Assembly: GCA_963825295.1 (NCBI GenBank)
Contig: CAWGSZ010000002.1
Span: 31,762 to 95,761 of the forward strand
DNA from: Vicinamibacterales bacterium
Lineage (GTDB): Bacteria > Acidobacteriota > Vicinamibacteria > Vicinamibacterales > JAMQPK01
Direction: 5' to 3'
Length of the DNA stretch: 64,000 nt
Shown here: piece by piece, positions 481 to 58,620 of the stretch
Layout: the number at the start of each line of letters is the position of its first letter
Numbering within the stretch: the first letter of the stretch is position 1
Notes under the pieces: generated by a model
The model's input: the letters and a program-made list of their open reading frames with translations, nothing else
Told to the model about the DNA's origin: nothing
Database searches by the model: none
Position numbers and translations under genes: made by a program

Positions 481-1388
481 GTACCGAAGTTCCCGATCTT
501 GTTGATTTCGCCGACATCAGCGAGATCGAGCTTCGTGTGATCAAGCGGATGAAGGAATACACGCTGGGCGATCACGGCAGCGTGTTTCACGGGACCGGTG
601 TCGACTTCGTGGGACTGCGCGACTGGCAGGCGGGCGATCGGCTGTCGTCGATCGACTGGCCGCAGTCGTCGCTCACCAACTTCAATCCGCTGATCGTCCG
701 CGAGTACGAGCAGCCCGGCACCGCGCCGATTGTCGTCGTCGCCGATGCGTCGCCCTCGACACGGTGCGGCACGGGCGGCACGCCGATCGCGGCCGGCGTG
801 GCCCGGGCGATGGCAACCATCGGGCTGTCGGCGGTGTACTTCCAGGACATGTTCGGCATCATCACGTTCGACAAGGGCTTCGCCAGCATGGCGTCCATCC
901 GGCCGCGGGTCGGCCGCGGCCACGTCATCCATTGCCTCGACGCGTATCAGGGGCGCGTCGGCATGGAAGAGGTGAAGACGGGGCTCCGGCTCGCGACGAC
1001 GATCGGCGGGCATTTGCGGCGGGCGACGTTGTTGCCGGTGATCTCGGATTTCCTGTTCGAGGATGCCGCCGAGCGCATCAAGGAAATTGCCGAGCTCAAC
1101 TCGGTGCACGATGTGTTTCTCGTGATGATCGACAGCGCGTTTGCGTTCGCCCTGCCGGATGTCTCGGCGGGATGGGTGAGCGCGTTCGACGTCGAGACGG
1201 GCGAGACGCGCCTGATGTCGAGGCGCGAGCTGCGGCATCTGTCGGACCGCGTGCGCGCATGGCAGGACGATCTCGAGCGCCAGGCGCACGATCGCGGCAT
1301 CGACGTGCTGCGGCTGGGGGTCGATCAGGAGAAGAGCCTGCCCGCGCTTCTGGAATTCGTGATGGTCAGGCGGTTGAGAAAAGCATGA
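477..1388 (+). CDS. DUF58 domain protein (MoxR-associated)
   Basis: This is the 3' part of ORF 291..1388. GTG 477 overlaps the moxR stop (GTGA). The motif GVDFVGLRDWQAGDRLSSIDW is DUF58-like. The part of the ORF before 477 overlaps moxR and reads as Arg-rich out-of-frame sequence. Confidence 0.75.
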   Translation: MSTEVPDLVDFADISEIELRVIKRMKEYTLGDHGSVFHGTGVDFVGLRDWQAGDRLSSIDWPQSSLTNFNPLIVREYEQPGTAPIVVVADASPSTRCGTGGTPIAAGVARAMATIGLSAVYFQDMFGIITFDKGFASMASIRPRVGRGHVIHCLDAYQGRVGMEEVKTGLRLATTIGGHLRRATLLPVISDFLFEDAAERIKEIAELNSVHDVFLVMIDSAFAFALPDVSAGWVSAFDVETGETRLMSRRELRHLSDRVRAWQDDLERQAHDRGIDVLRLGVDQEKSLPALLEFVMVRRLRKA

Positions 1389-2763
1389 TGAGACCAGGGA
1401 TTAGGGCAGGGATTAGGGATCGGGGATTAGGGATTGGGGCAGCGACGGGTGTCACGCTGATGCTCGCCGTGTTGGCGCCGCGCTCGGTGTCCGCGCAGAC
1501 CCCCGCGAATCTGCCTTCGCCGCGCCGCGGCTCCGGTGGCGACCGACGAACCCCACGAACCCGACGAACCCCACGAACCCTACGAACCCCACAAAGTCGT
1601 CCGACGTATCTGTTCCCCCGATCGAGTGCTGGTGGAAGACCGATCGCAGCGCGGTGAGCGTCGGCGAGCACTTCCAACTGACCCTGACGTGCGCGGTGCT
1701 CGCGACCGATCGGGTGTCGGTGGTGGTGGACGAGTCGAGCCTCGAACCGTCGGCGCTGCATTTGACGCCGTTCGAGATCATCGGCGGCCAGCGGTTTCGC
1801 GAGATCCTGAACGCGCCGCGGAAGTTCTTCCAGTACCAGTACACGATGCGCGTCCTCGGCGAGGAGTTCTTCGGCAAGGAAGTTCCGCTGCCGCGTCTGC
1901 AGATTACTTACAAGGTGCAGAACTCGCTGCAGGGCGGGGCGGCGCTCCAGGGCCGCGAGGCGCAGTATTCGCTCGTGCCGGTGCCCATCCGGGTGCTGTC
2001 GCTCGTTCCTCCAGGCGCCGTGGACATCCGCGATACCCCGAGCGACACGTTCGGCGACGTCGAGACGCGCCTCTTCCGATCGAACATCTTCCTTATTGTT
2101 GCCGCCGTGGCGTTTCTCGCCGCCGGCCTGATGGTGGTGATGCTCCTGGCGCGCGCGGCCGTCAGGCGGCGTGCGTTGACGGCGGCGCGCCATCGAACGG
2201 TCTCGTCGATGACCGTGCTCGGCGCGGCCATCCGCGAGCTCGCGATCGTGCGGGCGGAGAGCTCGCGCGCCGGTTGGACGGGCGAGCTGGCCGGGCGGGC
2301 GGCAGCGGCCGTGCGGCTGGCCGGGGCCGTCGCGTTGTCGCGTCCGGTGAGTCACAAGGAAGTGGATCGTCAAACGTCGCCCAGTGAAGGTCAGGTGGTT
2401 GCACCAGCCGGGCTCGCCACCCTGCGAGGGAAAGCCACGATGCTGTCGGCGGCCGTGACGCCTGAATCCTCTGTATCGAACGGCGATCCCCGCCCCGAAG
2501 GGCGTGGCGCCGAGTTGTGGCGATCGCTCAGCCAGTCGCTGGGTGTCTTCACGGCCGCAAGGTACACGCGCCCCTCGGCCAGCTCGGGGCGCCCCGATGC
2601 TGTTGAGGGGCGTAACGGCACGCTCGATCAGGCGGCGCTCGACTCGGCGCTGGCCGAAAGCCAGGACGCCGTGAAGCGGCTGCGTGTCCGACAGGTCCTT
2701 CGATTCGGCCGCAGGAAGCCGCACGCCGAAACCGCAGGCGCCCGACCAACATGGGCACGCTGA
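1385..2763 (+). CDS. BatD-like secreted/membrane protein, apparent frameshift between signal peptide and body
   Basis: ATG 1385 (ATGA overlap with the DUF58 stop) gives the signal peptide MMRPGIRAGIRDRGLGIGAATGVTLMLAVLAPRSVSAQ in frame 2. The body (PIECWWKTDRSAVSVGEHFQLTLTC..., ORF 1654..2763, one C-terminal TM helix) is in frame 1. Frame 1 has no start codon after its last stop at 1414-1416. The shift must lie between 1417 and 1657. The BatD assignment rests on position in the operon and architecture only. Confidence 0.5.
1397..1439 (+). repeat. GGGATTA-family tandem array with seven G-tracts (G-quadruplex motif)
   Basis: Read directly: GGG atta GGG ca GGG atta GGG atc GGGG atta GGG att GGGG. 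It lies in codons 5-18 of the downstream gene. Confidence 0.9.
1544..1588 (+). repeat. 9-bp tandem array NNACGAACC, 5 copies
   Basis: Read directly: cgacgaacc ccacgaacc cgacgaacc ccacgaacc ctacgaacc. It reads PTNPTNPTNPTNPT in the frame of the protein body. The same unit family occurs at 48876-48962. Confidence 0.9.
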
Positions 2764-3871: not shown

Positions 3872-4579
3872 ATGCGGCGCTCAATTCCAATTTTCGTCGT
3901 TGCCATCGTGTTCGCCCTGCTGGGCGGCGTCCTGCTGTCGGCGGGACTGTTCGAGCGCAGGATGGCCATTGCCCAGGAAGACATGGCGGTCCTCGACTTC
4001 ACCGATCCCGCGATTGAATACGCGAAGCTCGAGGAGGAGATTGCGGGGGTGCCCCTGGTCTCGGAAAGCGCGCTCAAGGACATTCACCGCCGGCGCGCCA
4101 CGCTTCAGTACTGGCAAAAAGACTATGCGGACCTCATCGAGGTGGCCCGCCAGGCGGCGACCACCGACGACGCCGCCTCGATCGATCCGGAGATGCGCGT
4201 GCTGGCGGCAAACGCCCTGTATCGCGTGGCGCAGCGCGGACCGCAGGATCGCGTGACGCTCCTCAGGAATCTCGACGCGGCGGTTCGCGCCTACAACGAG
4301 GCGCTGCGCGCGGGTGTCGAGCGGCAGGACGTCGCGTTCAACTACGAGCTGGCCGTGCGGATGCGCGAAGAGGTGGGCGCCGGCAAGCGGAAGGCGCTCC
4401 AGAACATGAAGGCGGAAGACGTCGAGAGCGATCCGAACATGCACGGCGATCCCGGCGAGCCGCCGAAGGATCTGAAGGTGGAGCAGTTCCAGATTCGGAT
4501 TCCGATGGATCCGAAGGAAATCAAGCAGAGCCAGGAACAGGCCGCCGGAACCGGCGCTGCCCGCCGGAAACGCGGCTGA
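3872..4579 (+). CDS. Membrane-anchored hypothetical protein in the BatC position of the operon
   Basis: ATG 3872 is preceded by AGGAG at 3862-3866. The product starts MRRSIPIFVVAIVFALLGGVLLSAG, followed by a helical acidic/basic region. This is the tail of ORF 2684..4579, whose upstream part overlaps the VWA gene out of frame. Confidence 0.6.
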   Translation: MRRSIPIFVVAIVFALLGGVLLSAGLFERRMAIAQEDMAVLDFTDPAIEYAKLEEEIAGVPLVSESALKDIHRRRATLQYWQKDYADLIEVARQAATTDDAASIDPEMRVLAANALYRVAQRGPQDRVTLLRNLDAAVRAYNEALRAGVERQDVAFNYELAVRMREEVGAGKRKALQNMKAEDVESDPNMHGDPGEPPKDLKVEQFQIRIPMDPKEIKQSQEQAAGTGAARRKRG

Positions 4580-4582
4580 TCA

Positions 4583-4612
4583 GGGATTAGGGACTGGGGA
4601 TTAGGGATTAGG
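4583..4612 (+). repeat. GGGATTA-family array (G-quadruplex motif) filling the spacer before the next start codon
   Basis: Read directly: GGG atta GGG act GGGG atta GGG atta GG. It ends 2 nt before GTG 4615. Confidence 0.9.
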
Positions 4613-4614
4613 AC

Positions 4615-5724
4615 GTGCTCGACCGATTGATTGATTTCCAGTCGTTGCGGTTCGGCGAGCCGCTCTACTTGTGGCTGCTGGCGTTCCCTGCCCTGCTGTT
4701 CGTCCTGTGGTGCTGGCACGTCATCCGCCGCAGGGGCGACGCGCGGAGGTACCGGGCGGCGCGGCTGATTCCGGTGCGCGAGCGATTCGCGCCGGTCGGC
4801 GAGCTGGCGTTCTGGCTCGCCCTCATTGCGGCGTTGTCGCTCACCATCCTCGCGATCTCGAGACCCCAGGGCATCACCGCGATCGTCCGCAGTCCCGGCG
4901 TCGACATCGTGCTCCTCCTGGACGGCTCGACGTCGATGCGCGTGCGCGACATGGGGACCGATCGCTGGCAGCGCGGGATGCAGTGGGTGCGCACGTTCAC
5001 CAAGACGCTCAGCTGGACCGGCGATCGCATGGCGCTGGCGACGTTCGCCGACATCGCGGTGCCGCAGGTGCGGCTGACGCGCGATCCCAACACGATCCTG
5101 TTCTTTCTCGATCACCTGGACGACGCCCCGACGTTCCGGCTGGAGAACGAGACGAGCTGGAACACGAACGTGGAAGACGCGATCTACTGGGGCGTCAAGC
5201 TCGTCGACACCGACATAGAGATGTACGGTCCGAGCAAGAACGCGCGCACCTTCGTCGTCATCTCCGACGGCCAGGTCTGGAGCGGCATCGTGCAGCGGGC
5301 CATCAACGAGGCCGCCAAGCGCGGCATCGCCGTGGACGTCATCGGCATCGGCACCACGAACGGCGGCATGATTCCGCTGCCGCGCGACGACAAGGGCATC
5401 GCGCTGGCGGGCTTCGAGCCGATTCGATCGACCATCGACCGGACCTCGCTGCGCGAGATCGCGCGGGCCGGCAACGGCGAGTATTTCGAGATCGGCACGG
5501 CGCCAGACGAGCAGATCGCTGCGCGCATCATCCAGAACGCGGCACGCCGCTCGGGCAACCAGCTGGTGGACGAATCGCTCGACGAGCTCTATTGGTACCT
5601 GCTCGCCGCCGCCGCCGTCTGCCTCGGGCTGGGCGTCCTCTTCGTGAAGCAGAAGCTGCAGCTCGGCTTCGGCCTCGCCGCCGCACTTCTGTTGCTCGTC
5701 CTCATCTCCGGCCTGCGGTCCTAA
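4615..5724 (+). CDS. VWA domain-containing membrane protein (BatB-like)
   Basis: ORF 4615..5724 with a GTG start. It has N-terminal TM helices, then DIVLLLDGSTSM (MIDAS motif) and a C-terminal TM helix. Confidence 0.8.
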   Translation: MLDRLIDFQSLRFGEPLYLWLLAFPALLFVLWCWHVIRRRGDARRYRAARLIPVRERFAPVGELAFWLALIAALSLTILAISRPQGITAIVRSPGVDIVLLLDGSTSMRVRDMGTDRWQRGMQWVRTFTKTLSWTGDRMALATFADIAVPQVRLTRDPNTILFFLDHLDDAPTFRLENETSWNTNVEDAIYWGVKLVDTDIEMYGPSKNARTFVVISDGQVWSGIVQRAINEAAKRGIAVDVIGIGTTNGGMIPLPRDDKGIALAGFEPIRSTIDRTSLREIARAGNGEYFEIGTAPDEQIAARIIQNAARRSGNQLVDESLDELYWYLLAAAAVCLGLGVLFVKQKLQLGFGLAAALLLLVLISGLRS

Positions 5725-5768: not shown

Positions 5769-6060
5769 TTTTCTCGACTCCTGCTCGCCGGCTTTTTGCT
5801 CGCACTTGGGCCTGCATCTGCCTTCCCATGAAGTGGAAGCGCTCTTGACACCCCTCAAGCTCACGATCGAAAAATGGCCGTCTTAACATTCGTCCGTGAG
5901 GCCGCCACGCGCCAACGCGGTGGCCGGATCCGTCTGCGTCGCGGCCGGAACTGACGCTGCACGAACACGGCCGCTTGCAGACGGATCCGTCCCCCGCATG
6001 GCGTGCGTGGAGCGGTTGTGTGTAGTTCGGCATCAGTTGCACCAGACAAGGAGTCGGCAT

Positions 6061-6314
6061 CCGGCAGTTGGGCTGGCGTTGCTGCAGCGCGAAGCCGTGC
6101 GCAGGCGGCCGACACGTTCAATGCCTGACCGCGCGAGAAGCCTGAGGGAACCGAGCGAGGATGAAAGGCGAAGTCAGTGTCCTCGCGCCACGCGGCCGCA
6201 GTCGGCCTCGCAGCGCGCGTCCGGCCCCGAAGCTTCGGATTCGGGCGGCAGTAATGCCAACCCAACTGCCGCCTGCCGAGGCTTGATCACTTCCGGCAGC
6301 CGTGTTGGCGTGGA
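6061..6314. repeat. Three copies of a ~20-nt motif CCGGCAG-N6-TGGCGT in alternating orientation (REP/BIME-like) within a non-coding region
   Basis: 6062-6080 cggcagttgggctggcgtt pairs with 6253-6271 aatgccaacccaactgccg. That gives 17 Watson-Crick pairs, 1 GU and 1 mismatch over 19 positions. A degenerate third copy lies at 6293-6314. Confidence 0.6.
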
Positions 6315-9215: not shown

Positions 9216-9312
9216 ACGGGTGTCGTGTCCTCGTGAAGGAAACAGTCGAACGAAGCTGTTAATCCTATCACCTGAGAATTCCGCGAGATGCCGCCGCGGC
9301 TTTTTCAGGCCT

Positions 9313-9348
9313 GAAAAAGAGAAAGGGCGCCGGATCACTCCGGCGCCC
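9313..9348 (-). terminator. Intrinsic terminator downstream of actE
   Basis: The minus strand reads GGGCGCCGG agtgat CCGGCGCCC followed by TTTCTCTTTTTC. An adjacent perfect 20-bp palindrome CTTTTTCAGGCCTGAAAAAG lies at 9300-9319. Confidence 0.65.
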
Positions 9349-9382
9349 CCTCAGCCCTTAGCCCTTAGCCCTCAGCCTTTAC
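9348..9382 (-). repeat. 7-bp array CCCTTAG/CCCTCAG, 5 copies (G-tracts on the minus, sense strand)
   Basis: Read directly: ccctcag cccttag cccttag ccctcag cctttac. It starts at the actE stop codon. The minus strand reads GG ctga GGG ctaa GGG ctaa GGG ctga GGGGG. Confidence 0.9.
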
Positions 9383-10287: not shown

Positions 10288-10357
10288 CTAGAATCTAAAA
10301 ACTAAAAACTAGAAACTACAACCGAGAACTGAAAACTGAAAACCGACGACTGAAAAC
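10288..10357. repeat. AT-rich 7-bp array (CTAGAAT/CTAAAAA/TGAAAAC), 10 units, filling the actC-actD spacer
   Basis: Read directly: ctagaat ctaaaaa ctaaaaa ctagaaa ctacaac cgagaac tgaaaac tgaaaac cgacgac tgaaaac. Confidence 0.9.
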
Positions 10358-11748
10358 TAATGAGCAGGATGCACGTCGCCCGCCACCTGCGTTCCGATGC
10401 TCGCCGGGTGATGCTCCGCCACCGTGTGTTTGGCAACCGAGTACCCCTCTTCGATCTCCCAGATGGAAATCATCGGGCTGAACTTGGCGAAGAGGAAATA
10501 CAACAGGACGAACAGGCCCAGCGTGCCCGATGCGATAGTCGCTTCAATGAGCGACGGGAAGTACGTACCGTAGTTGTACGGCAGGTACGGATGCGTGAGC
10601 GTAGGCACGATAATCAGGAACCGCTCCAGCCACATGCCGACGAGAATGCAGGTCGACGCGACGAAGATGAGCGGAATCGTCCGCAGCTTCTTGATCGCCA
10701 GAATCGGGAACGGGATCACGAAGTTGCACACGACCATCAGCCAGAAGAGCGGGGCGAAGCGGCCCGAAATCTTCGACCAGAAGACCGGCATCTCGGGCGC
10801 CTCGTTGCCGTACCACGTCACGAGGTACTCCGTGAACGTGAAGTAGAACCACAGCAGGCTCATCGCGAACAGCATTTTCGCGAGGTTGTCGAAATGGATC
10901 GGCAGCAGGTACTGCTCGAGCTTGAAGTACTTCCGGATAAGCACCATGGCGATCAGCAGCGCGGCGATACCCGAGAAGATGGCCCCGACGACGAAGTACG
11001 GTCCGAAGATGGTGCTGCGCCACATCGGCATCAGCGTCATCGCGAAGTCCCACGACACGATCGTGTGAACCGACACCGCGACCGGAATGATGATGAGCGC
11101 CATGATGGAGATGGCTTTTTCCAGCCGCACCCATTCCCGTTCCGTTCCCCGCCATCCGAGCGCGAGCATGCGGTACATCTTCTTGCGCCAGCCGGTGGCT
11201 TTATCGCGCGCGACGGCCATGTCGGGAATCATCGGCAGGTACAGGTAGGTGACGCTGCCGGTGAGGTAGGTGTTGATGGCGATGAAATCCCACATCAGCG
11301 GCGACTGGAAGTTCGGCCACAGGTACCGGTTGTTGGGCACCGGGATCATCCAGTAGAACAGCCACGCGCGTCCGAGGTGGACGATGGGAAAGAGCGAGCC
11401 GGTACAGAGGGCGAATGTGGTGATCGCTTCCGCGCACCGGGTGATCGGCCTGCGCCACTCGGCCTGCACGACCCGCAGAATGGCCGAGATGAGCGTGCCG
11501 GCGTGGCTGATGCCGATCCAGAAGACGAACGTCGTGATGTAGAGGCCCCAGAACGACGGGCGGTTCTTGCCCGCCATGCCGATGCCGTATTTCAGCTGAA
11601 AGAACCAGGCCACGAACACCATGCCCGTCACCGCGAGGAGCACGGCGAGCATGATGTAGTACTTCGGTCCGGTCTTGAAGAGCGGACCCAGCAGGTCGCG
11701 ATTGATCTGGGCTTCCGTTGGATGAAAGGGTGCCGGAGTCTGAGCCAC
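10357..11748 (-). CDS. actC: NrfD/PsrC-family integral membrane quinol-interacting subunit (ActC-like)
   Basis: ORF 10357..11748, 463 aa. It is polytopic, and its position directly after the Fe-S subunit (1-nt gap) is typical of ACIII and polysulfide-reductase-like complexes. Confidence 0.85.
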   Translation of the reverse strand: MAQTPAPFHPTEAQINRDLLGPLFKTGPKYYIMLAVLLAVTGMVFVAWFFQLKYGIGMAGKNRPSFWGLYITTFVFWIGISHAGTLISAILRVVQAEWRRPITRCAEAITTFALCTGSLFPIVHLGRAWLFYWMIPVPNNRYLWPNFQSPLMWDFIAINTYLTGSVTYLYLPMIPDMAVARDKATGWRKKMYRMLALGWRGTEREWVRLEKAISIMALIIIPVAVSVHTIVSWDFAMTLMPMWRSTIFGPYFVVGAIFSGIAALLIAMVLIRKYFKLEQYLLPIHFDNLAKMLFAMSLLWFYFTFTEYLVTWYGNEAPEMPVFWSKISGRFAPLFWLMVVCNFVIPFPILAIKKLRTIPLIFVASTCILVGMWLERFLIIVPTLTHPYLPYNYGTYFPSLIEATIASGTLGLFVLLYFLFAKFSPMISIWEIEEGYSVAKHTVAEHHPASIGTQVAGDVHPAH

Positions 11749-11749
11749 G

Positions 11750-12436
11750 TTAGGCGTCCCCTTCCTTCAAGTACACGACGCGCGGCCGGGTGCCGAGCTC
11801 TTCGAGCAGCCGGTACCCGCGGCGCGAATGCGCCAGCTTCGAGACGCGGCTCTCGGGGTCGGTCATGTCGCCGAACGTGATCACCTTCGACGGGCAGGCC
11901 TGCGCGCAGGCGGGCTGAATCTCGCCGTCACGCACGCCGCGGGTTTCGTCCTTGGCCGTGTCCTGCGCGCGACGGATGCGCTGCACGCAGAAGGTGCACT
12001 TCTCCATGATGCCGCTCGTGCGGATCGACACGTCGGGGTTGAGCTGCTCGTTCAGCGGGCTCGGCCACTCGGGGGTGAACCAGGTGAAGTAGCGCGCCGT
12101 GTACGGGCAGTTGTTCGCGCAGAAGCGCGTGCCCACGCAGCGGTTGTAGACCTGGGCGTTCAGGCCCTCGGGCGTGTGATACGTCGCGTTGACGGGGCAG
12201 ACCGGCTCGCAGGGCGCCGCATCGCACTGCTGGCACATCACCGGCATGAAGCGCGCCCGGATGTTCGGGAATTCACCCTCCCAGTAGCGTTCGACGCGAA
12301 TCCACTGATGCGTCCGGCCGTTGGCCGCCTGCTCCTCGCCGACGACCGGCAGATTGTTTTCGGCATGGCACGCCACGACGCAGGCTTCGCAGCCCGTGCA
12401 GCGATCCAGGTCGATTGTCATTCCCCACTGGGCCAT
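11750..12436 (-). CDS. actB: 4Fe-4S ferredoxin-type iron-sulfur subunit (ActB2-like)
   Basis: ORF 11750..12436. Cys clusters: CTGCEACVVACH, CQQCDAAPCEPVCP, CVGTRFCANNCP and CTFCVQR...CAQACP. Confidence 0.85.
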   Translation of the reverse strand: MAQWGMTIDLDRCTGCEACVVACHAENNLPVVGEEQAANGRTHQWIRVERYWEGEFPNIRARFMPVMCQQCDAAPCEPVCPVNATYHTPEGLNAQVYNRCVGTRFCANNCPYTARYFTWFTPEWPSPLNEQLNPDVSIRTSGIMEKCTFCVQRIRRAQDTAKDETRGVRDGEIQPACAQACPSKVITFGDMTDPESRVSKLAHSRRGYRLLEELGTRPRVVYLKEGDA

Positions 12437-12443
12437 TGGAACT

Positions 12444-12506
12444 CCGAATCTAAAATCTAGAATCTACAATCTGAAATCTTCGAACTGATAACTGAAAACT
12501 GAAACC
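12444..12506. repeat. AT-rich 7-bp array (TAGAATC/TGAAAAC family), 9 units, filling the actB1-actB2 spacer
   Basis: Read directly: ccgaatc taaaatc tagaatc tacaatc tgaaatc ttcgaac tgataac tgaaaac tgaaacc. Confidence 0.9.
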
Positions 12507-17961: not shown

Positions 17962-18541
17962 GGTTCGCCTCATCTTCTTCGAACAATCGATCGGCTGCGA
18001 GACGTGCGCGCCGACCAGGCGCGCGCTCGAGCAGATCGTCGACGAGAACGAGCACGTGGAGCTCGAAGCGCTCAATCTCGTGCTCGACAGGGAGAAAGCC
18101 GCCGAGTACGGCGTGGATCGGGTGCCCGCGGTTATCATCGAGGCGCCCGGACGCGATCGCATTCGCTACTACGGCGCGCCGCTGGGCTACGAGTTGCCCA
18201 CGCTGGCGGAAGCCGTGCACATGGCGGCGACCGGCGAAACGCGGCTCAGCGACGAGAGCCGCGCGCAGCTGAAAGCATTGACGACACCCGTGCACCTGCA
18301 GGTGTTCTACACGCCAGGCTGCGTCTATTGCCCGCGGATGATTTCGCTGGCGAATCAAGCCGCCATCGAAAGTCCGCTCGTGACCAGCGTGGCCATCGAT
18401 GCCGCGGAGTTCCCGGATCTCGTCCGCCGCTACAACGTGAACGGCGTGCCCAAGACGGTGATCAACGACTCGCTCGAGCTCATGGGAGCCGCGCCGGAAG
18501 AGGACTTCATGGCGGCTCTTGCCCAATCCACCGGGGAATAG
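17945..18541 (+). CDS. Two-domain thioredoxin-fold protein disulfide oxidoreductase (glutaredoxin-like)
   Basis: ORF 17945..18541. The CETC and CVYC motifs sit in two thioredoxin-like halves. It overlaps the upstream gene by 17 nt. Confidence 0.75.
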   Translation: MTSSSKVRLIFFEQSIGCETCAPTRRALEQIVDENEHVELEALNLVLDREKAAEYGVDRVPAVIIEAPGRDRIRYYGAPLGYELPTLAEAVHMAATGETRLSDESRAQLKALTTPVHLQVFYTPGCVYCPRMISLANQAAIESPLVTSVAIDAAEFPDLVRRYNVNGVPKTVINDSLELMGAAPEEDFMAALAQSTGE

Positions 18542-18564
18542 GGAATAGGGATTGGGGATTAGGG
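18533..18564 (+). repeat. GGGAATA/GGGATTA array with five G-tracts (G-quadruplex motif)
   Basis: Read directly: GGGG aata GGG aata GGG att GGGG atta GGG. It contains the upstream TAG stop (18539-18541) and the downstream TTG start (18552). Confidence 0.9.
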
Positions 18565-23247: not shown

Positions 23248-23317
23248 CGACTTGACGACTTTCGACCTGCGTCAGACGCCTTGCGCCCGCCGACTTTCGA
23301 CTTGCGACTTTCGACTA
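23248..23317 (+). repeat. 7-bp array NCGACTT, about 10 units (central units degenerate)
   Basis: Read directly: cgacttg acgactt tcgacct gcgtcag acgcctt gcgcccg ccgactt tcgactt gcgactt tcgacta. Confidence 0.85.
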
Positions 23318-25255: not shown

Positions 25256-26413
25256 ATGAACATCGGAGTGGTGTGTTACGCCTCGGTTGGCGGCAGCGGC
25301 ATCGTCGCCACCGAGCTGGCGAAGTCGCTGGCGCGCCGCAACCATCAGGTGCATCTGATCAGCACCGAGCCTCCATTCCGGCTCGGCGAGTACGAGGCCG
25401 GGCTGGCGTTTCACCGCGTTCACACGCCCACCTATCCGCTCTTCCGCGAGCCTCAATACCTGCTGTCGCTCGCCAACAAGATTGTGACGTTGTCGCGCGA
25501 GTTTTCGCTCGACATCGTGCACGCGCACTACGGCATTCCGCACGCGACCGCCGCGTACCTCGCCAAGCAGATTCTGGCCGCGACCAATGGCGGCCCCGGC
25601 GCGAAGGTGCCGAAGGTCATCACCACGCTGCACGGCACGGACATCACGCTGCTCGGCAGCGATCCCTCGTACTCGGAAACGGTCGCGTTCTCCATCGATC
25701 AGTCCGACGGAGTCACGGCGGTGTCGGAAAGCCTGCGCCGCGACACGTACGACGCGCTGCCGATCAAGCGCGACATCCGCGTCATTCCGAACTTTCTCGA
25801 GTGCGATGAGCACAAGCGCCGTGCGCTGCCGGAGCTGCGCGCGCGGCTGTGTCCGCCGTCCAAATACGACAAGCTGATCATTCACCTCTCGAACTTCAGG
25901 CCGGTGAAACGGGTGGATGCCGTCGTGGAGATCTTCCAGCGAGTGCGTCGTCAGGAAGTTCGAGCGAAGCTGATACTCGTCGGGGAAGGTCCCGAGCTCG
26001 GCCGCGCCATGCGCATGGTGCACGACTACGGTCTCGCGTGCGACGTGGAGGCCCTCGGCGAGCAGGATCAGGTCGTGCCGCTCCTCTCTGTGTCGGATTT
26101 GTTCCTGCTTCCATCGGCGCAGGAAAGCTTCGGGCTGGCCGCGCTCGAAGCCATGGCGTGCGAAGTGCCCGTGGTGGCGTCGCGGGTGGGCGGCCTGCCC
26201 GAGGTCGTCGAGGACGGCGTGTCCGGACTGCTCGCCGATCCCGAAGATATCGACGGCATGGCCAGGCACGCGACCAGCATCCTCAGCGATCCCGCACTGC
26301 ACGAGCGCTTCGCGCGCGCGGGCCTGGAGCGCGTAAGACGCCACTTCTGCGCGGGCCGCGTCGTGCCGCAGTACGAGGCGTACTACCAGGAAGTCATCCG
26401 GGACGCGACATGA
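25256..26413 (+). CDS. bshA: GT4 glycosyltransferase, N-acetyl-alpha-D-glucosaminyl L-malate synthase (BshA-like)
   Basis: ORF 25256..26413. Motifs match my recollection of B. subtilis BshA: [59 protein letters not shown] and PQYEAYY. Confidence 0.85.
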
Positions 26414-29088
26414 CGGTCTGGCGTGCGAGCCTTCTCGTCGGCGCGATGCTCGCCGTGCAGCTGAGCGCGCAGCTGCGCGTGCGGCCTATCGATCTCGAAG
26501 ACGGGTCGGTCGGTCTCGGGCTGATGCTTCGCCAGCTGGGCACCACCGCCGTGTTCATGCAGGCGACGGCGCATCCTGACGATGAGAACAACGCGCTGCA
26601 CGTATATCTGAATCGGGGCCAGGGCGTCCGTACGGTTCTCGCGACCGCGACACGCGGCGACGGCGGCCAGAACGAAATCGGACCCGAGCTCTACGATCCG
26701 CTCGCGGTGCTCCGAACCGAAGAGCTCGAGGCGATGCACCGCTTCGACTCGACCGAGCAGTACTTCACCCGTGCCATCGACTTCGGCTACTCCTTCAGCA
26801 TCGAAGAGACGCTCGAGAAGTGGGGCAGGGACGAGATCATCGGCGACTACGTCAGGCTCATCCGCATGACGCGGCCCGACGTCGTGCTGGGCATGCTTCC
26901 CACCGGCACCGCGGGTGGACTTCACCATCAGACGTCGGGCTTGCTCAGCCGCGAGGCGTTCAAGGCGGCCGGCGATGCGTCGCGCTATCCCGATCAGATG
27001 CGCGACGGCCTCATGCCGTGGCAGCCGCGCAAGTACTACTACCCGTTGGGCGGTCCTGGCGGGGGCGGGCGCGGTCAGCCGACGCCGGCCGGCGGCGCGC
27101 TGCCGCTCGGCGCGCTCAACGCGGCTTCCTTTGATATTTCCGGGTTCGATCCGCTGCTGGGCCGCACCTACGTCGAGGTCGGGACGGAAGAGCGCGGCAT
27201 GCACAAGAGCCAGGCGATGGCGGGCCTTCTCGCGCTGCCGTCGGGCCGGACGCAGCAGCGATTCCTCCTGATGGATTCGCTCGTGCCGGCCGTCTCCAGC
27301 GATGAGCCGTCGTTGTTCAACGGCATCGATACGACGATTCCTGGTCTCGCGCTGCTGGCGGGGCCGTCCGCGCCGGCGCCGCTCGTCGACGGATTGCGTG
27401 CGATCGCCAATCACGTGTCGGCGGCGCAGAAGACCTTCGATACCGGCGATCCCTTTGCGACCGCCCCGTCGATTCTTGCCGGGCTGAACGCCGTGCGAAC
27501 GCTCCGACAGCAGCTTGGCACGATGGGTCTGTCGCGAGAGGGGCAGTTCAACATCGATCAGCGGCTGAAGACCAAGGAAGACCAGCTCAACCAAGCTGCC
27601 GTGCTGGCGCATGGCCTTCGCGTCGAAGCGCTCGCCGATGATGGCGTCGTCGTTCCCGGACAGACCGTGCGCGTCTCGATCAGCATCGGCGATCGCGGCC
27701 GTCCGATCGCCGTGTCGTCGATCGCCCTGAACGGATTTTCGGTTCCCGCCACGTGCCAGTCGGGTCCGATCGAGGTGGGCTCGGTCTACCGCTGCGATGC
27801 GTCGACACAGATTCCGACGAACGCGACGGTCACGAAGCCGTACTGGAAGCCGCTGGCCAGGGCGGCACGTTACGAATTCGAGCCCGGCGCGCCGTTCGGC
27901 CTTCCGTTCCGTCCGACGCCCTTCCGTGTGTCGTTTGCGCTCTCGGCGGGCGGCACCGACGTGCGCTTCGACCGCGACGTTCAGTTCAGGTACGAAGGAC
28001 GCGAGCTCGAAGGCGAGAAGCGCATGGAGCTCGCCGTCGTGCCACGCCTGGCATTGCGGGTCAGCCCGTCGATCGCGATCGTGCCGGCGGGGCGCGGGGC
28101 CACGGCCGCCATCGATCGGGAAGTCCGCGTCACGGTCGCCAACCACGGCAAGGGGGCGGCAGCCGGTCAGGTGCGCCTGGACGTCCCGCCGGGCTGGACG
28201 ACGACGCCGGTGCAGACGGTCAACTTCACGCGCGAAGACGAGTCGCAGACCGTGCGATTCACGATCCGGCCGGGGGCAAAAACGGCGATCGGGCAGTACA
28301 TCGTCACATCGCAGGCCACCGCCGACGGGCAGAGCTTTGGCAGCGGCTTTCAGATCGTCGAGTATCCGCACGTGCGCCGCCGGCAACTGGAGATTCCCGC
28401 CGCGGTGGCGGTCAAGGTGATGGACGTGCGGCTCGCACAGAATCTCACCATCGGTTACGTCATGGGGACGGGCGATGACATTCCCGCAGCGCTTCGCGGC
28501 CTTGGCGCGACGGTTCAGCTGCTCGACGCCGACGAGCTGTCCTGGGGCGACCTCGCCCGCTACCACGCGATTTTCATCGGCGTGCGCGCGTACGACAGCC
28601 GGGACGATCTGCGCGCCAACAACAAGCGCATTCTCGACTACGCGGCGTCGGGCGGCACGGTGATCGTCCAGTACAACCGGGCCAGCACGTGGACGCAGTA
28701 CGCGCCCTTTCCACTCGGCTTCAGCAATACGCGGGTCACCGACGAGAACGGTCAGGTTCAGATTCTTTCGTCAGATGATCCCGTCTTTCATTTTCCCAAT
28801 GAGATCGGCGACGCGGTCTGGCGCAACTGGGCGCAGGAGCGCGGCACGTACTTCGTGGTGCCCGACGATCGGCGCTACACCGATCTGATCCAGATTCAGG
28901 AGCCGTTCGAGCACAACGCGGGCTGGAAGAAAGGCGCGCTCGTGACCGCCAACGTGGGCAAGGGGCGCTGGATCTTCGTCGGTCTCGGCCTCTGGAGGCA
29001 GGTGACCGCCGGCACCGATGGCGCGTATCAGCTTCTCGCCAATCTCGCCAGCCGCGGAAAACCGCCGGGCATCCGATCACAAAATTGA
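26410..29088 (+). CDS. Large secreted PIG-L/LmbE-domain protein with a class-I-amidotransferase-like (ThuA-like) C-terminal domain
   Basis: This is the tail of ORF 25849..29088. Its ATG 26410 overlaps the bshA stop (ATGA). It has the signal peptide [21 protein letters not shown] and the motif ATAHPDDENN. Confidence 0.75.
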   Translation: MTVWRASLLVGAMLAVQLSAQLRVRPIDLEDGSVGLGLMLRQLGTTAVFMQATAHPDDENNALHVYLNRGQGVRTVLATATRGDGGQNEIGPELYDPLAVLRTEELEAMHRFDSTEQYFTRAIDFGYSFSIEETLEKWGRDEIIGDYVRLIRMTRPDVVLGMLPTGTAGGLHHQTSGLLSREAFKAAGDASRYPDQMRDGLMPWQPRKYYYPLGGPGGGGRGQPTPAGGALPLGALNAASFDISGFDPLLGRTYVEVGTEERGMHKSQAMAGLLALPSGRTQQRFLLMDSLVPAVSSDEPSLFNGIDTTIPGLALLAGPSAPAPLVDGLRAIANHVSAAQKTFDTGDPFATAPSILAGLNAVRTLRQQLGTMGLSREGQFNIDQRLKTKEDQLNQAAVLAHGLRVEALADDGVVVPGQTVRVSISIGDRGRPIAVSSIALNGFSVPATCQSGPIEVGSVYRCDASTQIPTNATVTKPYWKPLARAARYEFEPGAPFGLPFRPTPFRVSFALSAGGTDVRFDRDVQFRYEGRELEGEKRMELAVVPRLALRVSPSIAIVPAGRGATAAIDREVRVTVANHGKGAAAGQVRLDVPPGWTTTPVQTVNFTREDESQTVRFTIRPGAKTAIGQYIVTSQATADGQSFGSGFQIVEYPHVRRRQLEIPAAVAVKVMDVRLAQNLTIGYVMGTGDDIPAALRGLGATVQLLDADELSWGDLARYHAIFIGVRAYDSRDDLRANNKRILDYAASGGTVIVQYNRASTWTQYAPFPLGFSNTRVTDENGQVQILSSDDPVFHFPNEIGDAVWRNWAQERGTYFVVPDDRRYTDLIQIQEPFEHNAGWKKGALVTANVGKGRWIFVGLGLWRQVTAGTDGAYQLLANLASRGKPPGIRSQN

Positions 29089-36586: not shown

Positions 36587-36655
36587 GATGGCAATGGCGG
36601 ATGGCAGATGGCAACGACAACCATCTGCCATCTGCCATGTGCCATCTGCCATGAC
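36587..36655. repeat. Dyad-symmetric 7-bp array: GATGGCA, 4 copies, then CCATCTG, 5 copies (long hairpin between convergent genes)
   Basis: gatggca atggcg gatggca gatggca, acgacaa, ccatctg ccatctg ccatgtg ccatctg ccatgac. Confidence 0.9.
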
Positions 36656-38762: not shown

Positions 38763-39537
38763 ATGGCCCGGCCCAAAGCCCCCACCTCCGACACCCGGCA
38801 CCGCATCCTCGCCGCCGCCGCCGCCGAGTTCGGCGACCACGGCTTCGCCGCGACCACCATCGACCGCATCGCCAGGCGCGCACGCGTCAACAAGGCGATG
38901 ATTTACTACCACTTTCCCAACAAGCGCGCCCTCTACACCTCCATCATTCGCGACGTCTTCCGGCCCATCACCGAACGCACCCGGGCCGTCATCGCCGACG
39001 ATCTCCCCGCCGATCGCAAGCTCGACCGCGTGATCGAAACCATCGTCGCCTCGCTCGACGAATCGGCGCATTTCCTCCCGATCTTCCTGCGCGAAATCGC
39101 CGACGGCGGCGCGCATCTGGGACCCGACGAGCTGGCCCTCATCGCCGGCATGTTTGCCGCGGTCAGCGGCGTCATCGCCGAGGGCGGCAGGCAGAAGGTC
39201 TTTCAGCCCGTCCATCCCGCGCTGGCGCACTTCACGATCATCGCGCCGCTCGTGATGTTCCGTGCGGCCGCACCCGTCCGCGCGCGGATCAGAAGCCGTA
39301 CGGCACGTCGATATTCCCGAAGCCGACTCGGCCACGCTCGTCCGGCATCTGCAAATGGTGGCAAGGCGCATGCTGAGTCCGGAGCGTGAGAGTCCGGAGA
39401 GTCTCGAGAGTCGGAAGAGTCTCGAGAGTCAAAAGAGTCCCGAGAGTCAGAAGAGTCTTGGGAGTCCGAAGAGTCCCGAGAGTCCTGAGAGTCACAAGAG
39501 TCCAAGTGTCAGAGAGTCGGCGAAGAGAGGCTTATGA
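38763..39537 (+). CDS. TetR family transcriptional regulator, apparent frameshift, with a repeat-encoded C-terminal tail
   Basis: It has the HTH region ILAAAAAEFGDHGFAATTIDRIARRARVNKAMIYYHF. After about 39270-39300 the listed frame becomes Arg-rich with A/T third positions. The +1 frame (ORF 39262..39537) reads AVRHVDIPEADSATLVRHLQMVARRML with G/C third positions. That frame runs through the 9-bp array to a stop overlapping the next ATG. Confidence 0.7.
39388..39504 (+). repeat. 9-bp tandem array RAGAGTCNN, 13 copies
   Basis: gagagtccg gagagtctc gagagtcgg aagagtctc gagagtcaa aagagtccc gagagtcag aagagtctt gggagtccg aagagtccc gagagtcct gagagtcac aagagtcca. Degenerate units flank it on both sides. 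Confidence 0.95.
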
Positions 39538-40542: not shown

Positions 40543-40598
40543 TGGAGTAAAAAGTCAAAAGTGAAAAGTGAAAAGTGAAAAGTTGAAGGTGAACGAGA
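40543..40598 (+). repeat. 7-bp array AAAAGTG, about 8 units, filling the hlyD-ABC spacer
   Basis: (gtggagt) aaaagtc aaaagtg aaaagtg aaaagtg aaaagtt gaaggtg aacgaga. It ends 1 nt before ATG 40600. Confidence 0.9.
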
Positions 40599-48414: not shown

Positions 48415-48986
48415 TGAGCCTGTACGAGATCCCGTTGACGACAATCGACGGCCAGACGGTCACGCTCGATCGCTACCGTGGGAAGAGGCTCCTCATCGTG
48501 AACGTGGCGAGCCGGTGCGGGTTCACCCCTCAATACAAGGGACTGGAAGAGCTCTACCGGCGGCGCAAGGACGATCTCGTCGTCCTCGGGTTCCCCTGCA
48601 ATCAATTCGGCCGTCAGGAGCCTGGCAGCAACGAGGAGATACGCCAGTTCTGCGACGACTATTGCAGCGTGACGTTTCCGCTGTTCGCCAGAATCGAGGT
48701 CAACGGCGCGAACGCGCACCCGCTGTTTCGCTTTCTGAAAGCGGAGAAAAGAGGATTTCTGGGACGCGAAGCGATTGCGTGGAACTTCACGAAGTTCCTC
48801 GTTGGACCCGGCGGCGACGTGCTGAAGCGCTACGGGTCGCGCGTGAAGCCGGAAGCCATCGAGAAGGAGCTGTACGGGTTCGTCAGGTTCGTGAGGTTCG
48901 TGGGTTCGTCAGGTTCGACGAACTTACGAACCGACGAACTTGACGAACCCGACGAACCGACAAGGTATTCTCATGACAGACGATGA
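48414..48986 (+). CDS. gpx: Glutathione peroxidase (Cys type) with a repeat-encoded C-terminal extension
   Basis: This is the tail of ORF 48354..48986, starting at ATG 48414 (TGATG overlap). Motifs: NVASRCGFTPQY, LGFPCNQFGRQEPG and WNFTKFLV. The last ~35 aa (GFVRFVRFVGSSGSTNLRTDELDEPDEPTR...) are translated from the 9-bp array. Confidence 0.85.
   Translation: MSLYEIPLTTIDGQTVTLDRYRGKRLLIVNVASRCGFTPQYKGLEELYRRRKDDLVVLGFPCNQFGRQEPGSNEEIRQFCDDYCSVTFPLFARIEVNGANAHPLFRFLKAEKRGFLGREAIAWNFTKFLVGPGGDVLKRYGSRVKPEAIEKELYGFVRFVRFVGSSGSTNLRTDELDEPDEPTRYSHDRR
48876..48962. repeat. Dyad-symmetric 9-bp array: GGTTCGTNN, 5 copies, then NNACGAACC-type units, 5 copies
   Basis: gggttcgtc aggttcgtg aggttcgtg ggttcgtc aggttcgac, then gaacttac gaaccgac gaacttgac gaacccgac gaaccgaca. 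The arms can pair over about 40 nt. Confidence 0.9.
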
Positions 48987-54238: not shown

Positions 54239-55221
54239 TGTACCGGCAACTCGGTAGAAGCGGCTTGAGGGTATCGGCGATTGGCCTGGGGTGCATGGGC
54301 ATGTCGCAGAGCTACGGGACGCCCGACGCCGACGAATCCATTCGCACGATCCATCGCGCCCTCGACCTCGGCGTCACGCTCGTGGATACGGCGAACGTGT
54401 ACGGCAAGGGAGAGAACGAGGAGCTCGTGGGCCGCGCCATTCGCGACCGGCGGAAAGAGGTGGTGCTGGCGACGAAGTTCGGCCTCAGCATGGGTGCCAG
54501 CGCGATGTCGGCGGGCGTTGACGCCAGGGCCGAGCTCGTCGGGCCGTCGTGCGACGCGAGCCTCGCCCGTCTCGGGGTGGACGTCATCGATCTCTACTAC
54601 CTCCACCGCGTCGATCCCGGGGTGCCCATCGAAGAGACGGTTGGGGCGATGGCGGATCTCGTTCGCGCAGGGAAAGTGCGCTTTCTCGGGCTGTCGGAAG
54701 CGGGTCCAGACACATTGCGCCGCGCGGCGAAGATTCATTCCATCGCCGCGCTTCAGTCGGAGTTCTCGCTCTGGTCGAGAGATCCGGAGCGGGGCGTGCT
54801 CTCAGCGTGCCGCGAGCTTGGCATCGGCTTCGTGCCATTCAGCCCGCTCGGCCGCGGGTTCCTGACCGGCACGGTGAAGGACACCGGCGGTCTCGTGGAG
54901 AACGACGTCCGCCGGCATCTGCCGCGCTTTCAGCAGGAGAACATTTCCCGGAACGTGCGTCTTGTCGAAGGTCTCGAGGGCATGGCGCGCTCGAAGGGCT
55001 GCTCGGCGGCGCAGCTCGCGCTCGCGTGGCTGCTGCACAAGGGCGACGACATCGTGCCCATTCCCGGCACGAAGCGCCTCCGGTACCTGGAAGAGAACGT
55101 CGAAGCCGTGAACATCACGCTGACGCCTCGAGAAATGAGCGAGCTCGATGACTCGTTTCAGGCCGGCGCCGTCGCGGGCGAGCGTTACGGACCTGAGAGC
55201 CTGAAGTTGGTGGAAAACTAG
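54235..55221 (+). CDS. Aldo/keto reductase
   Basis: It starts [24 protein letters not shown], with the ATG overlapping the corrected upstream stop (ATGA). Other motifs are LVDTANVYG and LGLSEAG. Confidence 0.85.
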
Positions 55222-55270
55222 AATCTAAAATCTAGAATCTAGAACTAAAATCTAGAATCTGAATAGAATC
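55219..55270 (+). repeat. AT-rich 7-bp array TAGAATC/TAAAATC, about 7 units; the first unit contains the AKR stop codon
   Basis: Read directly: tagaatc taaaatc tagaatc tagaac taaaatc tagaatc tgaatag aatcttc. Confidence 0.9.
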
Positions 55271-55278
55271 TTCGAGCA

Positions 55279-55572
55279 ATGCACTACCTGCTTTTTTACG
55301 AAGCCGGGGCGGATTATGCGGAACGGCGGCAGCCGTTCCGGGTGGCACATCTCCAGCACGCGCGCAATGCGGTCGCACGCGGCGAGCTCGTGCTCGGCGG
55401 CGCGCTGGCCAATCCGATCGATGGAGCCGTGCTGCTGTTCCGCGGCGATTCGTCAGCCGCCGCGGAGCAGTTTGCGAAAACCGATCCCTACGTGACGAAC
55501 GGCGTCATTCAGCGATGGCACGTGCGCGAATGGACGACGGTTGTGGGTAACGATGCTGAAACTAAAATCTAA
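55279..55572 (+). CDS. YciI family protein
   Basis: ORF 55279..55572. It reads MHYLLFYEAGADYAERRQPFRVAHLQHARNAVARGELVLGGAL. The last codons (AETKI) come from the next array. Confidence 0.8.
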   Translation: MHYLLFYEAGADYAERRQPFRVAHLQHARNAVARGELVLGGALANPIDGAVLLFRGDSSAAAEQFAKTDPYVTNGVIQRWHVREWTTVVGNDAETKI

Positions 55573-55610
55573 AAACTAGAATCTAGAATCTGGAATCTGA
55601 AACCTTAAGA
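55556..55610 (+). repeat. AT-rich 7-bp array CTAAAAT/CTAGAAT, about 8 units
   Basis: Read directly: ctgaaa ctaaaat ctaaaaa ctagaat ctagaat ctggaat ctgaaac cttaaga. Confidence 0.9.
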
Positions 55611-58550: not shown

Positions 58551-58620
58551 GATCTAGAAACCAGGAACTGAGATCCAGAGATTTCAGATTCTAGTTTGTA
58601 GATTTTAGTTTCTAGATTCA
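58551..58620. repeat. Dyad arrangement of the CTAGAAA-family 7-mers: 4 forward units then 6 reverse-complement units
   Basis: ctagaaa ccaggaa ctgagat ccagag, then agatttc agattct agtttgt agatttt agtttct agattca. tctagaaac (58553) pairs with gtttctaga (58608). It abuts the stop of the YVTN gene. Confidence 0.85.

Follow-up and report, generated by a model that had tools for sequence, protein, structure and literature searches.

Why should a run of telomere-like, G-rich heptamers lie inside the first codons of a gene for an exported protein, and what, if anything, does it do there? The question is raised by a locus in a soil bacterium of the Vicinamibacterales (GenBank assembly GCA_963825295.1), from which we analysed 64,000 nucleotides of contig CAWGSZ010000002.1 (positions 31,762 to 95,761 of the forward strand; hereafter the window, 64.8% GC, whose own numbering is used below). 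The focal array, at 1397-1439, belongs to the G-rich heptamer class of simple-sequence repeats. Its family, GGGATTA/GGGGATT, is one of many heptamer families found at Vicinamibacterales gene boundaries. Comparison of related loci shows it to be a translated, nucleotide-conserved yet dispensable member of a population of boundary repeats. An initial annotation had proposed that the array, as an RNA quadruplex, throttles the translation of genes for exported proteins; the evidence does not support a throttle peculiar to secretion genes, and a generic role at mRNA boundaries is possible. The features of the locus are these.

1385-2763, plus strand: focal gene, the third gene of a MoxR / DUF58 / focal / VWA / ? 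/ VWA operon, broken in the window by what looks like a 1-nt deletion.
1385-1388, plus strand: ATGA overlap of the focal ATG (1385-1387) with the TGA of the DUF58 gene (1386-1388), a layout typical of translational coupling.
1385-1495, plus strand: signal peptide coding region of 37 codons, by hydropathy profile, with an Arg-rich n-region that holds the array, the h-region LGIGAATGVTLMLAVLA, then VSA|Q.
1397-1439, plus strand: focal array, an imperfect G-rich heptamer array of GGGATTA/GGGATTG type with seven G-tracts, translated as GIRAGIRDRGLGIG.
1543-1544, plus strand: CC run, a probable assembly indel, where one extra C restores an intact 459-aa open reading frame (ORF) with a classical Sec signal peptide.
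1546-1592, plus strand: (ACGAACCCC)x5 nonamer array, coding a (PTN)n linker past the signal peptide.

The letters at 1397-1439 and the seven G-tracts, each a run of at least three G on the sense strand, are exactly as first quoted, and the placement stands as well: the array starts 12 nt past ATG 1385, within the first 18 codons of a Sec signal-peptide gene, and TAG stops at 1402, 1414 and 1428 fall in both of the non-coding frames. Tandem Repeats Finder (TRF) assigns it a period of 7 with 6.6 copies of the consensus AGGGATT, at 71% matches and 10% indels, and interrupted units such as GGGCA and GGGATC occur within it. With up to one mismatch allowed, GGGATTAGGG is matched 14 times in the window against 1.8 expected, a count reached by 0 of 100 shuffles. 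Of canonical G3+N1-7 quadruplex motifs there are eight, where 2.2 are expected; the window's five GGGATTA-type arrays account for five of them. G4Hunter scores (1.74 for the focal array, 1.1-1.7 for the four others) bear out the quadruplex potential first claimed, and the ViennaRNA fold of the focal array reaches -13.9 kcal/mol with quadruplexes allowed against -1.6 kcal/mol without them; in silico, the array is predicted to be competent to form a G-quadruplex (G4). Searches with Rfam covariance models returned no family reaching its gathering score anywhere in the window. Long-range pairing of the G-rich array with the C-rich (ACGAACCCC)n array 110 nt downstream is present in the minimum-free-energy fold and was rejected (z = +1.3; 186 of 200 shuffles gave an equally good or better fold).

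Is the array read by the ribosome? The focal product is a signal-peptide protein with one central transmembrane (TM) helix, for which Pfam and NCBIfam searches returned no family. Exact-sequence look-ups of three proteins of the window gave no match, and the lineage was established through homologues. Homologues of the focal protein are abundant, and the contigs that carry the gene belong nearly all to metagenome-assembled genomes (MAGs) of Vicinamibacterales (Acidobacteriota), many of them from long reads; the contigs of the nearest relatives are ~95-97% identical to the window in DNA. The frame of ATG 1385 reads MMRP-GIRAGIRDRGLGIG-AATG, giving the N-terminus MMRPGIRAGIRDRGLGIGAATGVTLMLAVLAPRSVSAQ..., and intact orthologues support it, in agreement with the earlier reading of the array as the in-frame n-region of a signal peptide. 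The junction between the DUF58 and focal genes follows A[AG][AG]G[CG]ATGA in 20 of 23 loci, and 13 loci run open without a break from the coupled ATG through the array and the signal peptide to the mature domain. Intact orthologues start ...GIRDWGLGI..., GIRDWRLGI, GIRDLGLGI, GIGDWGLGI or GIRDRGLGI, which corresponds to GGG ATT AGG GAT TGG GGA TTA GGG ATT in frame. A perfect (GGGATTA)3 puts a TAG in every frame, and the focal frame stays open because the single would-be TAG codon has been changed: orthologues have TGG, TTG, TCG, CAG or CGG at this position, the first four being one base from TAG, while the out-of-frame TTAGGG junctions are unchanged. The same TGG escape occurs in an unrelated lipoprotein gene of the window (array 59697-59726, below). 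Together, the open orthologue ORFs and the shared escape argue, on the evidence of the sequences, that the ribosome translates through both the focal and the lipoprotein arrays.

Of 15 orthologous loci that were aligned, 13 have the array at this same site (related loci are cited here by L numbers), and near-invariant columns of the alignment are concentrated in its core. A core of 27 nt is near base-identical in L005, L007, L008, L009 and L010, despite flanks only ~80% identical to the window. The codons concerned are sparingly used in the bulk genes of this genome, where TTA makes up 0.1% of Leu codons and the shares of AGG (Arg), GGA (Gly) and ATT (Ile) are 5.5%, 12% and 24%. The retention of such very rare codons between diverged flanks indicates that the array persists at the level of its nucleotides and not of the peptide. 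The number of units is constant among close relatives, unlike the copy number of the nearby (PTN)n nonamer, which differs between proteins of 90% identity or more. Within one 90%-identity cluster, all full-length members share the same array-coded N-terminus, and the number of core units is equal across the order. The GGGGATT variant of the unit was found in L010 and L022.

Persistence goes together with decay and loss. The copies in L003, L006, L012, L014 and L021 are degenerate, the orthologues in L011, L016, L018 and L019 are without the array, and one protein cluster of 90% identity holds both an array-plus form (441 aa) and an array-minus form (433 aa). In P0146, from another cluster, a GC-rich palindromic element of ~65 nt sits in frame inside the array and the ORF is still intact. 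At the DUF58/focal junction of distant relatives, a spacer instead carries different G-rich heptamers (GGGGCAA, GGGCTGA).

Palindromic elements resembling repetitive extragenic palindromes (REP) or miniature inverted-repeat transposable elements (MITE) were seen within the heptamer array in L004 (~6040-6105) and L023 as well as in P0146, adding ~22 residues to the n-region. The insertion is polymorphic inside a 90%-identity protein cluster, and related palindromic copies precede the second VWA gene in L005 and L014. The linker motifs PSPRRGSG and LRQAQDAPS look like similar elements translated in frame.

Four further GGGATTA-type arrays in the window, named in the initial annotation, are all real, with refined coordinates, and together with the focal array all five are G-rich on the mRNA-sense strand.

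4583-4613, plus strand: second array, filling the whole spacer from the TGA at 4577-4579 to GTG 4615 of a VWA (BatA-like) gene and ending ...TTAGGAC GTG.
18533-18564, plus strand: third array (GGGAATA/GGGATTG/GGGATTA), which supplies the stop of a thioredoxin-like gene (TAG, 18539-18541) as well as the start of an M61 peptidase gene (TTG, 18552).
59697-59726, minus strand: fourth array, lying within codons 3-12 of the gene for a beta-propeller lipoprotein (MSKGLGIRDWGLALNARV...ISGC), with TGG at the in-frame TAG position.
9346-9381, minus strand: fifth array (GGCTGAG/GGCTAAG x4), in the 3' untranslated region (UTR) that separates the TAA of a cytochrome c gene from an intrinsic terminator.
9311-9352, minus strand: intrinsic terminator hairpin with T-run, adjoining and slightly overlapping the fifth array.

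The TTG inside the third array is the only possible start of the M61 peptidase gene, which encodes a signal peptide. The lipoprotein gene has a good GGAG Shine-Dalgarno (SD) sequence 7 nt ahead of its ATG; its array is present only in relatives 87-89% identical and missing at 66% identity or less, and this confinement to the nearest relatives marks it as a recent gain.

Do these placements point to secretion? All four genes in the window with an array at their start encode a signal peptide or an N-terminal TM segment, and the 3' UTR case follows a secreted cytochrome c. On this pattern one could suppose that an RNA G4 (rG4) at the initiation region of exported-protein genes was selected to match translation to export capacity. 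The strong in silico G4 scores agree with such a mechanism, and there is a precedent in Mycobacterium tuberculosis, where rG4s within the ORFs of PE/PPE genes inhibit the translation of surface proteins (PMC10801317). With ~40% of window genes having signal-peptide- or TM-like N-termini, however, four of four gives p ~0.03, from a tiny sample. A simpler cause is also at hand: only cleavable n-regions tolerate added residues, so that the apparent link with secreted proteins needs no function.

A wider view came from a metagenome scan for GGGATTAGGGATTRGGGATTAGGG, a pattern that demanded at least four units and that was found on at least 120 contigs of 38-72% GC; the counts that follow are among the matches listed. 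The gene 5' of the G-rich strand lies on the same strand, with the array just past its stop, in 57 loci and on the opposite strand in 28, and where a downstream gene lies close, it shares the strand of the array in 28 loci and has the other orientation in 16. The sense bias is thus ~2:1, and the strand preference that the initial annotation suggested looking for is found both here and in the window (five of five). Resolved by gene end, it comes to 57 versus 16 in favour of the coding strand after stops, and to 28 sense versus 28 on the non-coding strand at starts. The commonest place is just 3' of a stop codon (57 loci against 28 at starts), contrary to the suggestion that start codons are the main site. 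About 9 of the 28 downstream genes look exported or membrane-bound, which is the baseline, and the others include genes for MetRS, Pth, RecN and NuoB; ordinary housekeeping genes follow the arrays no less often than exported ones do. The proposed specificity for exported proteins is not supported. In the flanking units the G positions are kept at 86-90% and the loop positions at 76-79%, a difference that would suit selection for a quadruplex. The commonest unit counts are four and five, the pattern having forced at least four. An origin of the arrays as assembly artefacts was rejected: they occur in long-read and in short-read MAGs (with MEGAHIT-style k141 names) and in both JGI and ENA metagenomes.

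The orthologues tell against the quadruplex as a conserved property. A canonical G3N1-7 motif is present in only 7 of the 13 array-bearing orthologues, two lose the motif entirely and four orthologues have no array; with loops of up to 12 nt allowed, 11 of the 13 keep a quadruplex motif. In the equivalent of the spacer before the second VWA gene, relatives carry heptamers unable to form a G4 (AAACGAA, AGAAGGA, ATGGCAG). With these losses, with most metagenome arrays lying past stop codons, and with exported genes at baseline, an rG4 tuned to secretion seems to us quite unlikely.

That spacer (window 4577-4615; compared across L003-L024) shows most clearly that the focal array is one family within a wider population. 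Its length ranges from 0 to ~70 nt, and its position is conserved while its sequence is not: GGGATTA occurs in the window's species group and in L009, (ATGGCAG)7 in L003, AAACGAA-type units in L007, L019, L023 and L012, AGAAGGA in L016, GGGGCAA in L015 and an octamer in L006. Of the 149 short arrays that TRF finds across 348 kb from this lineage, 75 have period 7, against 25 of period 8, 22 of period 9 and 12 of period 6, and most AGGGATT arrays there have a TRF copy number of 3.9-5.0. Within the window, 14 of the 16 period-7 arrays are at gene boundaries, each of these being richer in AT than the genome. The initial annotation had missed both this wider population and the fact that the class has already been described. 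Examples are listed below.

10285 to about 10343-10360, plus strand: (AAACTAA)x8.6 array in the spacer between two minus-strand genes.
12447-12504: boundary heptamer array.
23291-23316: boundary heptamer array.
36587-36652: boundary heptamer array.
40546-40583: boundary heptamer array.
55218-55264: boundary heptamer array.
55562-55602: boundary heptamer array.
58582-58619: boundary heptamer array.

The AT-rich spacer units around 10285, 12447, 40546, 55218, 55562 and 58582 are AAACTAA, AATCTAA, AACTGAA, AGTGAAA, CTAGAAT and CTAAAAT; the CTAGAAT family occurs at two window sites and at related loci (e.g. L012 3473). Some heptamer arrays are inverted pairs that form hairpins, and some flank terminators. 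At 36594-36645, (GATGGCA)n and (CCATCTG)n are mutually inverted and form a terminator-like hairpin of 18-20 bp between convergent genes. Gene ends in L010 (~11640-11760), L011 (~11700-11830), L012 (11717-11841) and L021 (~12400-12500) have a compound inverted repeat, in which G-rich heptamer arrays and their C-rich inverse copies lie to either side of an intrinsic-terminator hairpin (GGGGCGCTGGAA..TTCCAGCGCCCC).

Could the arrays be nothing more than by-products of slippage, tolerated in spacers and n-regions and slowly decaying by point mutation? The many unrelated heptamers at boundaries, the turnover of repeats within the one VWA spacer, the degenerate copies listed above, the losses in L011 and L019 and the tolerance of an in-frame mobile-element insertion all fit such a neutral account, as does the fact that the class has no assigned function after detailed study (Rehm et al., 2015; PMC4692102). 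It accounts poorly for a rare-codon core of 27 nt that stays near-perfect in five loci with flanks of ~80% identity, for an identical unit at many unlinked sites and in many taxa, for a modal length of 4-5 units in place of a decaying distribution, and for loops that vary more than G-tracts. We regard a wholly neutral history as possible, albeit doubtful.

Another possibility is that such repeats serve as a platform for proteins or ribosomes, with UAGGGA/AGGGAU acting as SD-like sites or as targets of a multimeric RNA-binding regulator (a CsrA-type protein reading ANGGA, S1, Csp, or a ring protein reading UAG-N4-UAG). The last of these motifs is a HutP-type RNA site. The array at 4583-4613 abuts the GTG 4615 region and ends in AGGA, purine-rich or SD-like repeats (AGAAGGA, AAGGGGC, AAACGAA) occupy the equivalent spacer in other species, and UAGGGA could by our reckoning pair with the 3' end of 16S rRNA. 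Regulators of this kind have been proposed for TAACTGA heptamers lying just 5' of starts in Beggiatoaceae, cyanobacteria and Bacteroidetes (MacGregor, 2015; PMC4679880). The focal array, however, lies downstream of its start codon and the array at 9346-9381 in a 3' UTR, and no candidate binding protein was identified. A general sense-strand rule was rejected over 30 heptamer families (purine-rich versus purine-poor 15 versus 15; G>C versus G<C 18 versus 10, not significant); a purine-rich or C-poor sense strand is the rule at one place alone, the spacer ahead of the second VWA gene. Nor is a UAG-N4-UAG periodicity supported: it fits many window arrays and few in related loci, where UAG-containing units are not common. 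A platform of this kind is, in our judgement, improbable. The idea that the arrays supply stops in three frames was set aside too; most window units carry a stop, but the argument is largely circular because stop-containing heptamers cannot persist in ORFs.

The TAACTGA repeats too are short tandem heptamers, usually of 2-6 copies, that contain stops; they lie a few nucleotides ahead of the starts of many unrelated genes and have a patchy phylogenetic spread that is unexplained. They differ from the present arrays in being AT-rich, without G4 potential, by description essentially intergenic and of a single dominant family, whereas here there are many families. Start-proximal placement of the TAACTGA type is seen for 4583-4613 and for the spacer heptamers of relatives; the focal array lies past its ATG.

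The frame of the focal gene bears on another possibility. In the window, the frame of ATG 1385 meets a stop at 1657, the mature protein being encoded in a different frame (1417-2763); the gene is also broken in the close relatives L004, L013 and L024, each time elsewhere, and is intact in more distant relatives. Heptanucleotide repeats are known to be phase-variable, as in Haemophilus HMW1A (PMC8262952), and gain or loss of a 7-nt unit past the start could in principle shift the frame and switch a surface protein on and off. A unit length that is no multiple of three, a position at the 5' end of envelope-protein genes, which is the classical layout of a contingency locus, and a focal gene out of frame in the window and three close relatives would all be in keeping with this. 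But the breaks lie outside the array and at differing positions (e.g. the C-run at 1543-1544), the array-coded N-terminus is uniform in a cluster where the nonamer varies, and an imperfect array (71% matches by TRF) suppresses slippage. Unlike contingency loci, then, the array has imperfect units, a maintained frame and no unit-number polymorphism among close relatives, with core unit number equal across the order; phase variation was also judged unlikely for the G-rich heptamer class (Rehm et al., 2015; PMC4692102). We rejected it as extremely unlikely. ORFs broken at different positions in close relatives suggest assembly indels, and the break in the focal gene is most likely an indel in long-read data, apparently of Nanopore type, and not biology.

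We therefore favour, at about even confidence for the package as a whole, a boundary heptamer repeat that was born by slippage and absorbed into an n-region, with any effect being generic and at the mRNA level. Most of the weight lies on the identity and origin of the array; that it has a real regulatory effect is possible rather than probable. Slipped-strand replication at cistron junctions would create the arrays, and an ORF could take one in only where added residues do no harm, as in the n-region of a signal peptide that is cleaved. An effect, if any, would fall on the mRNA as that of a generic boundary element and not of a device specific to secretion. At the focal gene, a C-poor, quadruplex-capable stretch of very rare codons might make initiation or early elongation slower than on the upstream DUF58 gene, and arrays between stop codons and terminators may act as a spacer or a 3' roadblock, in the manner of REP elements.

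Several findings weigh against this preferred reading. Slippage alone leaves the identical unit at unlinked sites, and in contigs of 38-72% GC, unexplained; nor is it sufficient for a 4-unit core that is near base-perfect in several diverged lineages with a constant number of units. The uneven keeping of the canonical quadruplex motif among orthologues, given above, counts here as well. In addition, the gene maps used are heuristics based on GC at third codon positions and not curated annotation, and the frame test leans partly on long-read MAGs carrying indel errors.

A bolder reading would take the sense-strand array for a selected RNA punctuation element, a translated-through quadruplex kept base-for-base in N-termini across an order-level clade, with period-7 arrays, whatever their changing sequence, forming a functional class of intercistronic signal read by a factor of 7-nt periodicity. 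This we consider unlikely. Bacteria are reported to be depleted of RNA quadruplexes (Guo and Bartel, 2016, cited in PMC10801317), and such an element would run contrary to that depletion and would imply a dedicated way to resolve or exploit the structures. The locus is useful under either outcome. One array lies in the translated N-termini of many species with a purged stop and rare codons, which makes constraint on nucleotides and on peptide separable; should this constraint be real, whether bacteria employ RNA quadruplexes at cistron boundaries becomes a tractable question. Should it not be, there is still a warning for annotation: the GIRDWGLGI N-termini, PTN linkers and in-frame palindromic insertions of soil Acidobacteria proteins are translated repeat DNA and not protein motifs. 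The puzzles worth keeping are the period of 7, the occurrence of one unit in unrelated genomes and the base-perfect core in diverged lineages.

How does the family compare with repeats already known? G-rich heptamers were described from Xanthomonas (GGGAATC) and Nostoc PCC 7120 (GGGGA(C/T)T), dispersed and with a preference for four units, at ORF boundaries, between co-oriented ORFs and often overlapping stops; they form G4 in vitro, as circular dichroism experiments on Nostoc GGGGATT demonstrated, and are of unknown function (Rehm et al., 2015; PMC4692102). Heptamers are over-represented among the long simple-sequence repeats of large GC-rich genomes, for which slippage was offered as the explanation (relayed by Rehm et al., 2015; PMC4692102). 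By the features tested, the focal array belongs to this class. It shares the head-to-tail 7-nt units with a tract of three to four G, over-representation (14 versus 1.8), dispersal (five arrays in 64 kb, recurring in relatives), a modal length of about four units and a G4 competence that is here predicted. Placement at boundaries between co-oriented ORFs, overlap with stops, occasional inverted pairs and differences in unit number or sequence between relatives are common to both, with two to three of the five window copies lying inside the first codons of ORFs. The GGGGATT variant of L010 and L022 is identical to the Nostoc unit. Nostoc GGGGA(C/T)T is the cyanobacterial STRR1 repeat CCCCAAT. 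The present family differs in its host (Acidobacteriota, Vicinamibacterales) and its dominant unit (GGGATTA), in having its start-proximal copies on the coding strand, where Rehm et al. found the non-coding strand preferred (their preference for the coding strand just past stops is seen in the metagenome loci as well), and in that several copies lie inside translated N-termini, with the in-frame TAG purged, and are conserved across an order.

Other likenesses are more partial. The palindromic hairpins of E. coli known as REP or bacterial interspersed mosaic elements (BIME) lie past stops and beside terminators and can stabilise the upstream mRNA or affect a neighbouring cistron. The present arrays resemble them as short repeated elements after stops, between cistrons and beside terminators, but they are tandem heptamers and not palindromic hairpins, with no evidence here of a dedicated REP-associated tyrosine transposase (RAYT), and they are not members of that group. 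With the PE/PPE motifs of M. tuberculosis, for which translation falls on G4 stabilisation (PMC10801317), they share predicted sense-strand G4 motifs in ORFs for exported or surface proteins; those motifs are GC-rich coding repeats for Gly-rich stretches, whereas the arrays here are AT-containing heptamer repeats found outside ORFs as well. Eukaryotic telomere repeats likewise combine a G3 tract with a T/A loop in head-to-tail tandem. A telomeric identity was rejected: the unit TTAGGGA matches neither vertebrate TTAGGG nor plant TTTAGGG, and the arrays are internal, 30-43 nt long with 4-6 units, at five loci in or between genes within 64 kb.

Some further repeats and genes of the window may be recorded. 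Its longest array, at 39388-39518, consists of ~14 copies of GAGAGTCNN (with an 18-nt super-unit) and has GAGTC every 9 nt; it sits between the TGA of the upstream gene and ATG 39534 of a gene for an HlyD-family efflux adaptor. We take its GAGTC to fit the GANTC methylation motif. The gene for BshA, a glycosyltransferase of bacillithiol synthesis (25256-26413; NCBIfam equivalog, E = 2.7e-149), overlaps a long ORF in another frame (25849-29088), which may be another assembly frame problem. Lastly, the ACGAACCCC nonamer family of the focal gene also occurs at 48875-48951, as an inverted pair with arms of 18-19 nt in an apparently gene-free stretch.

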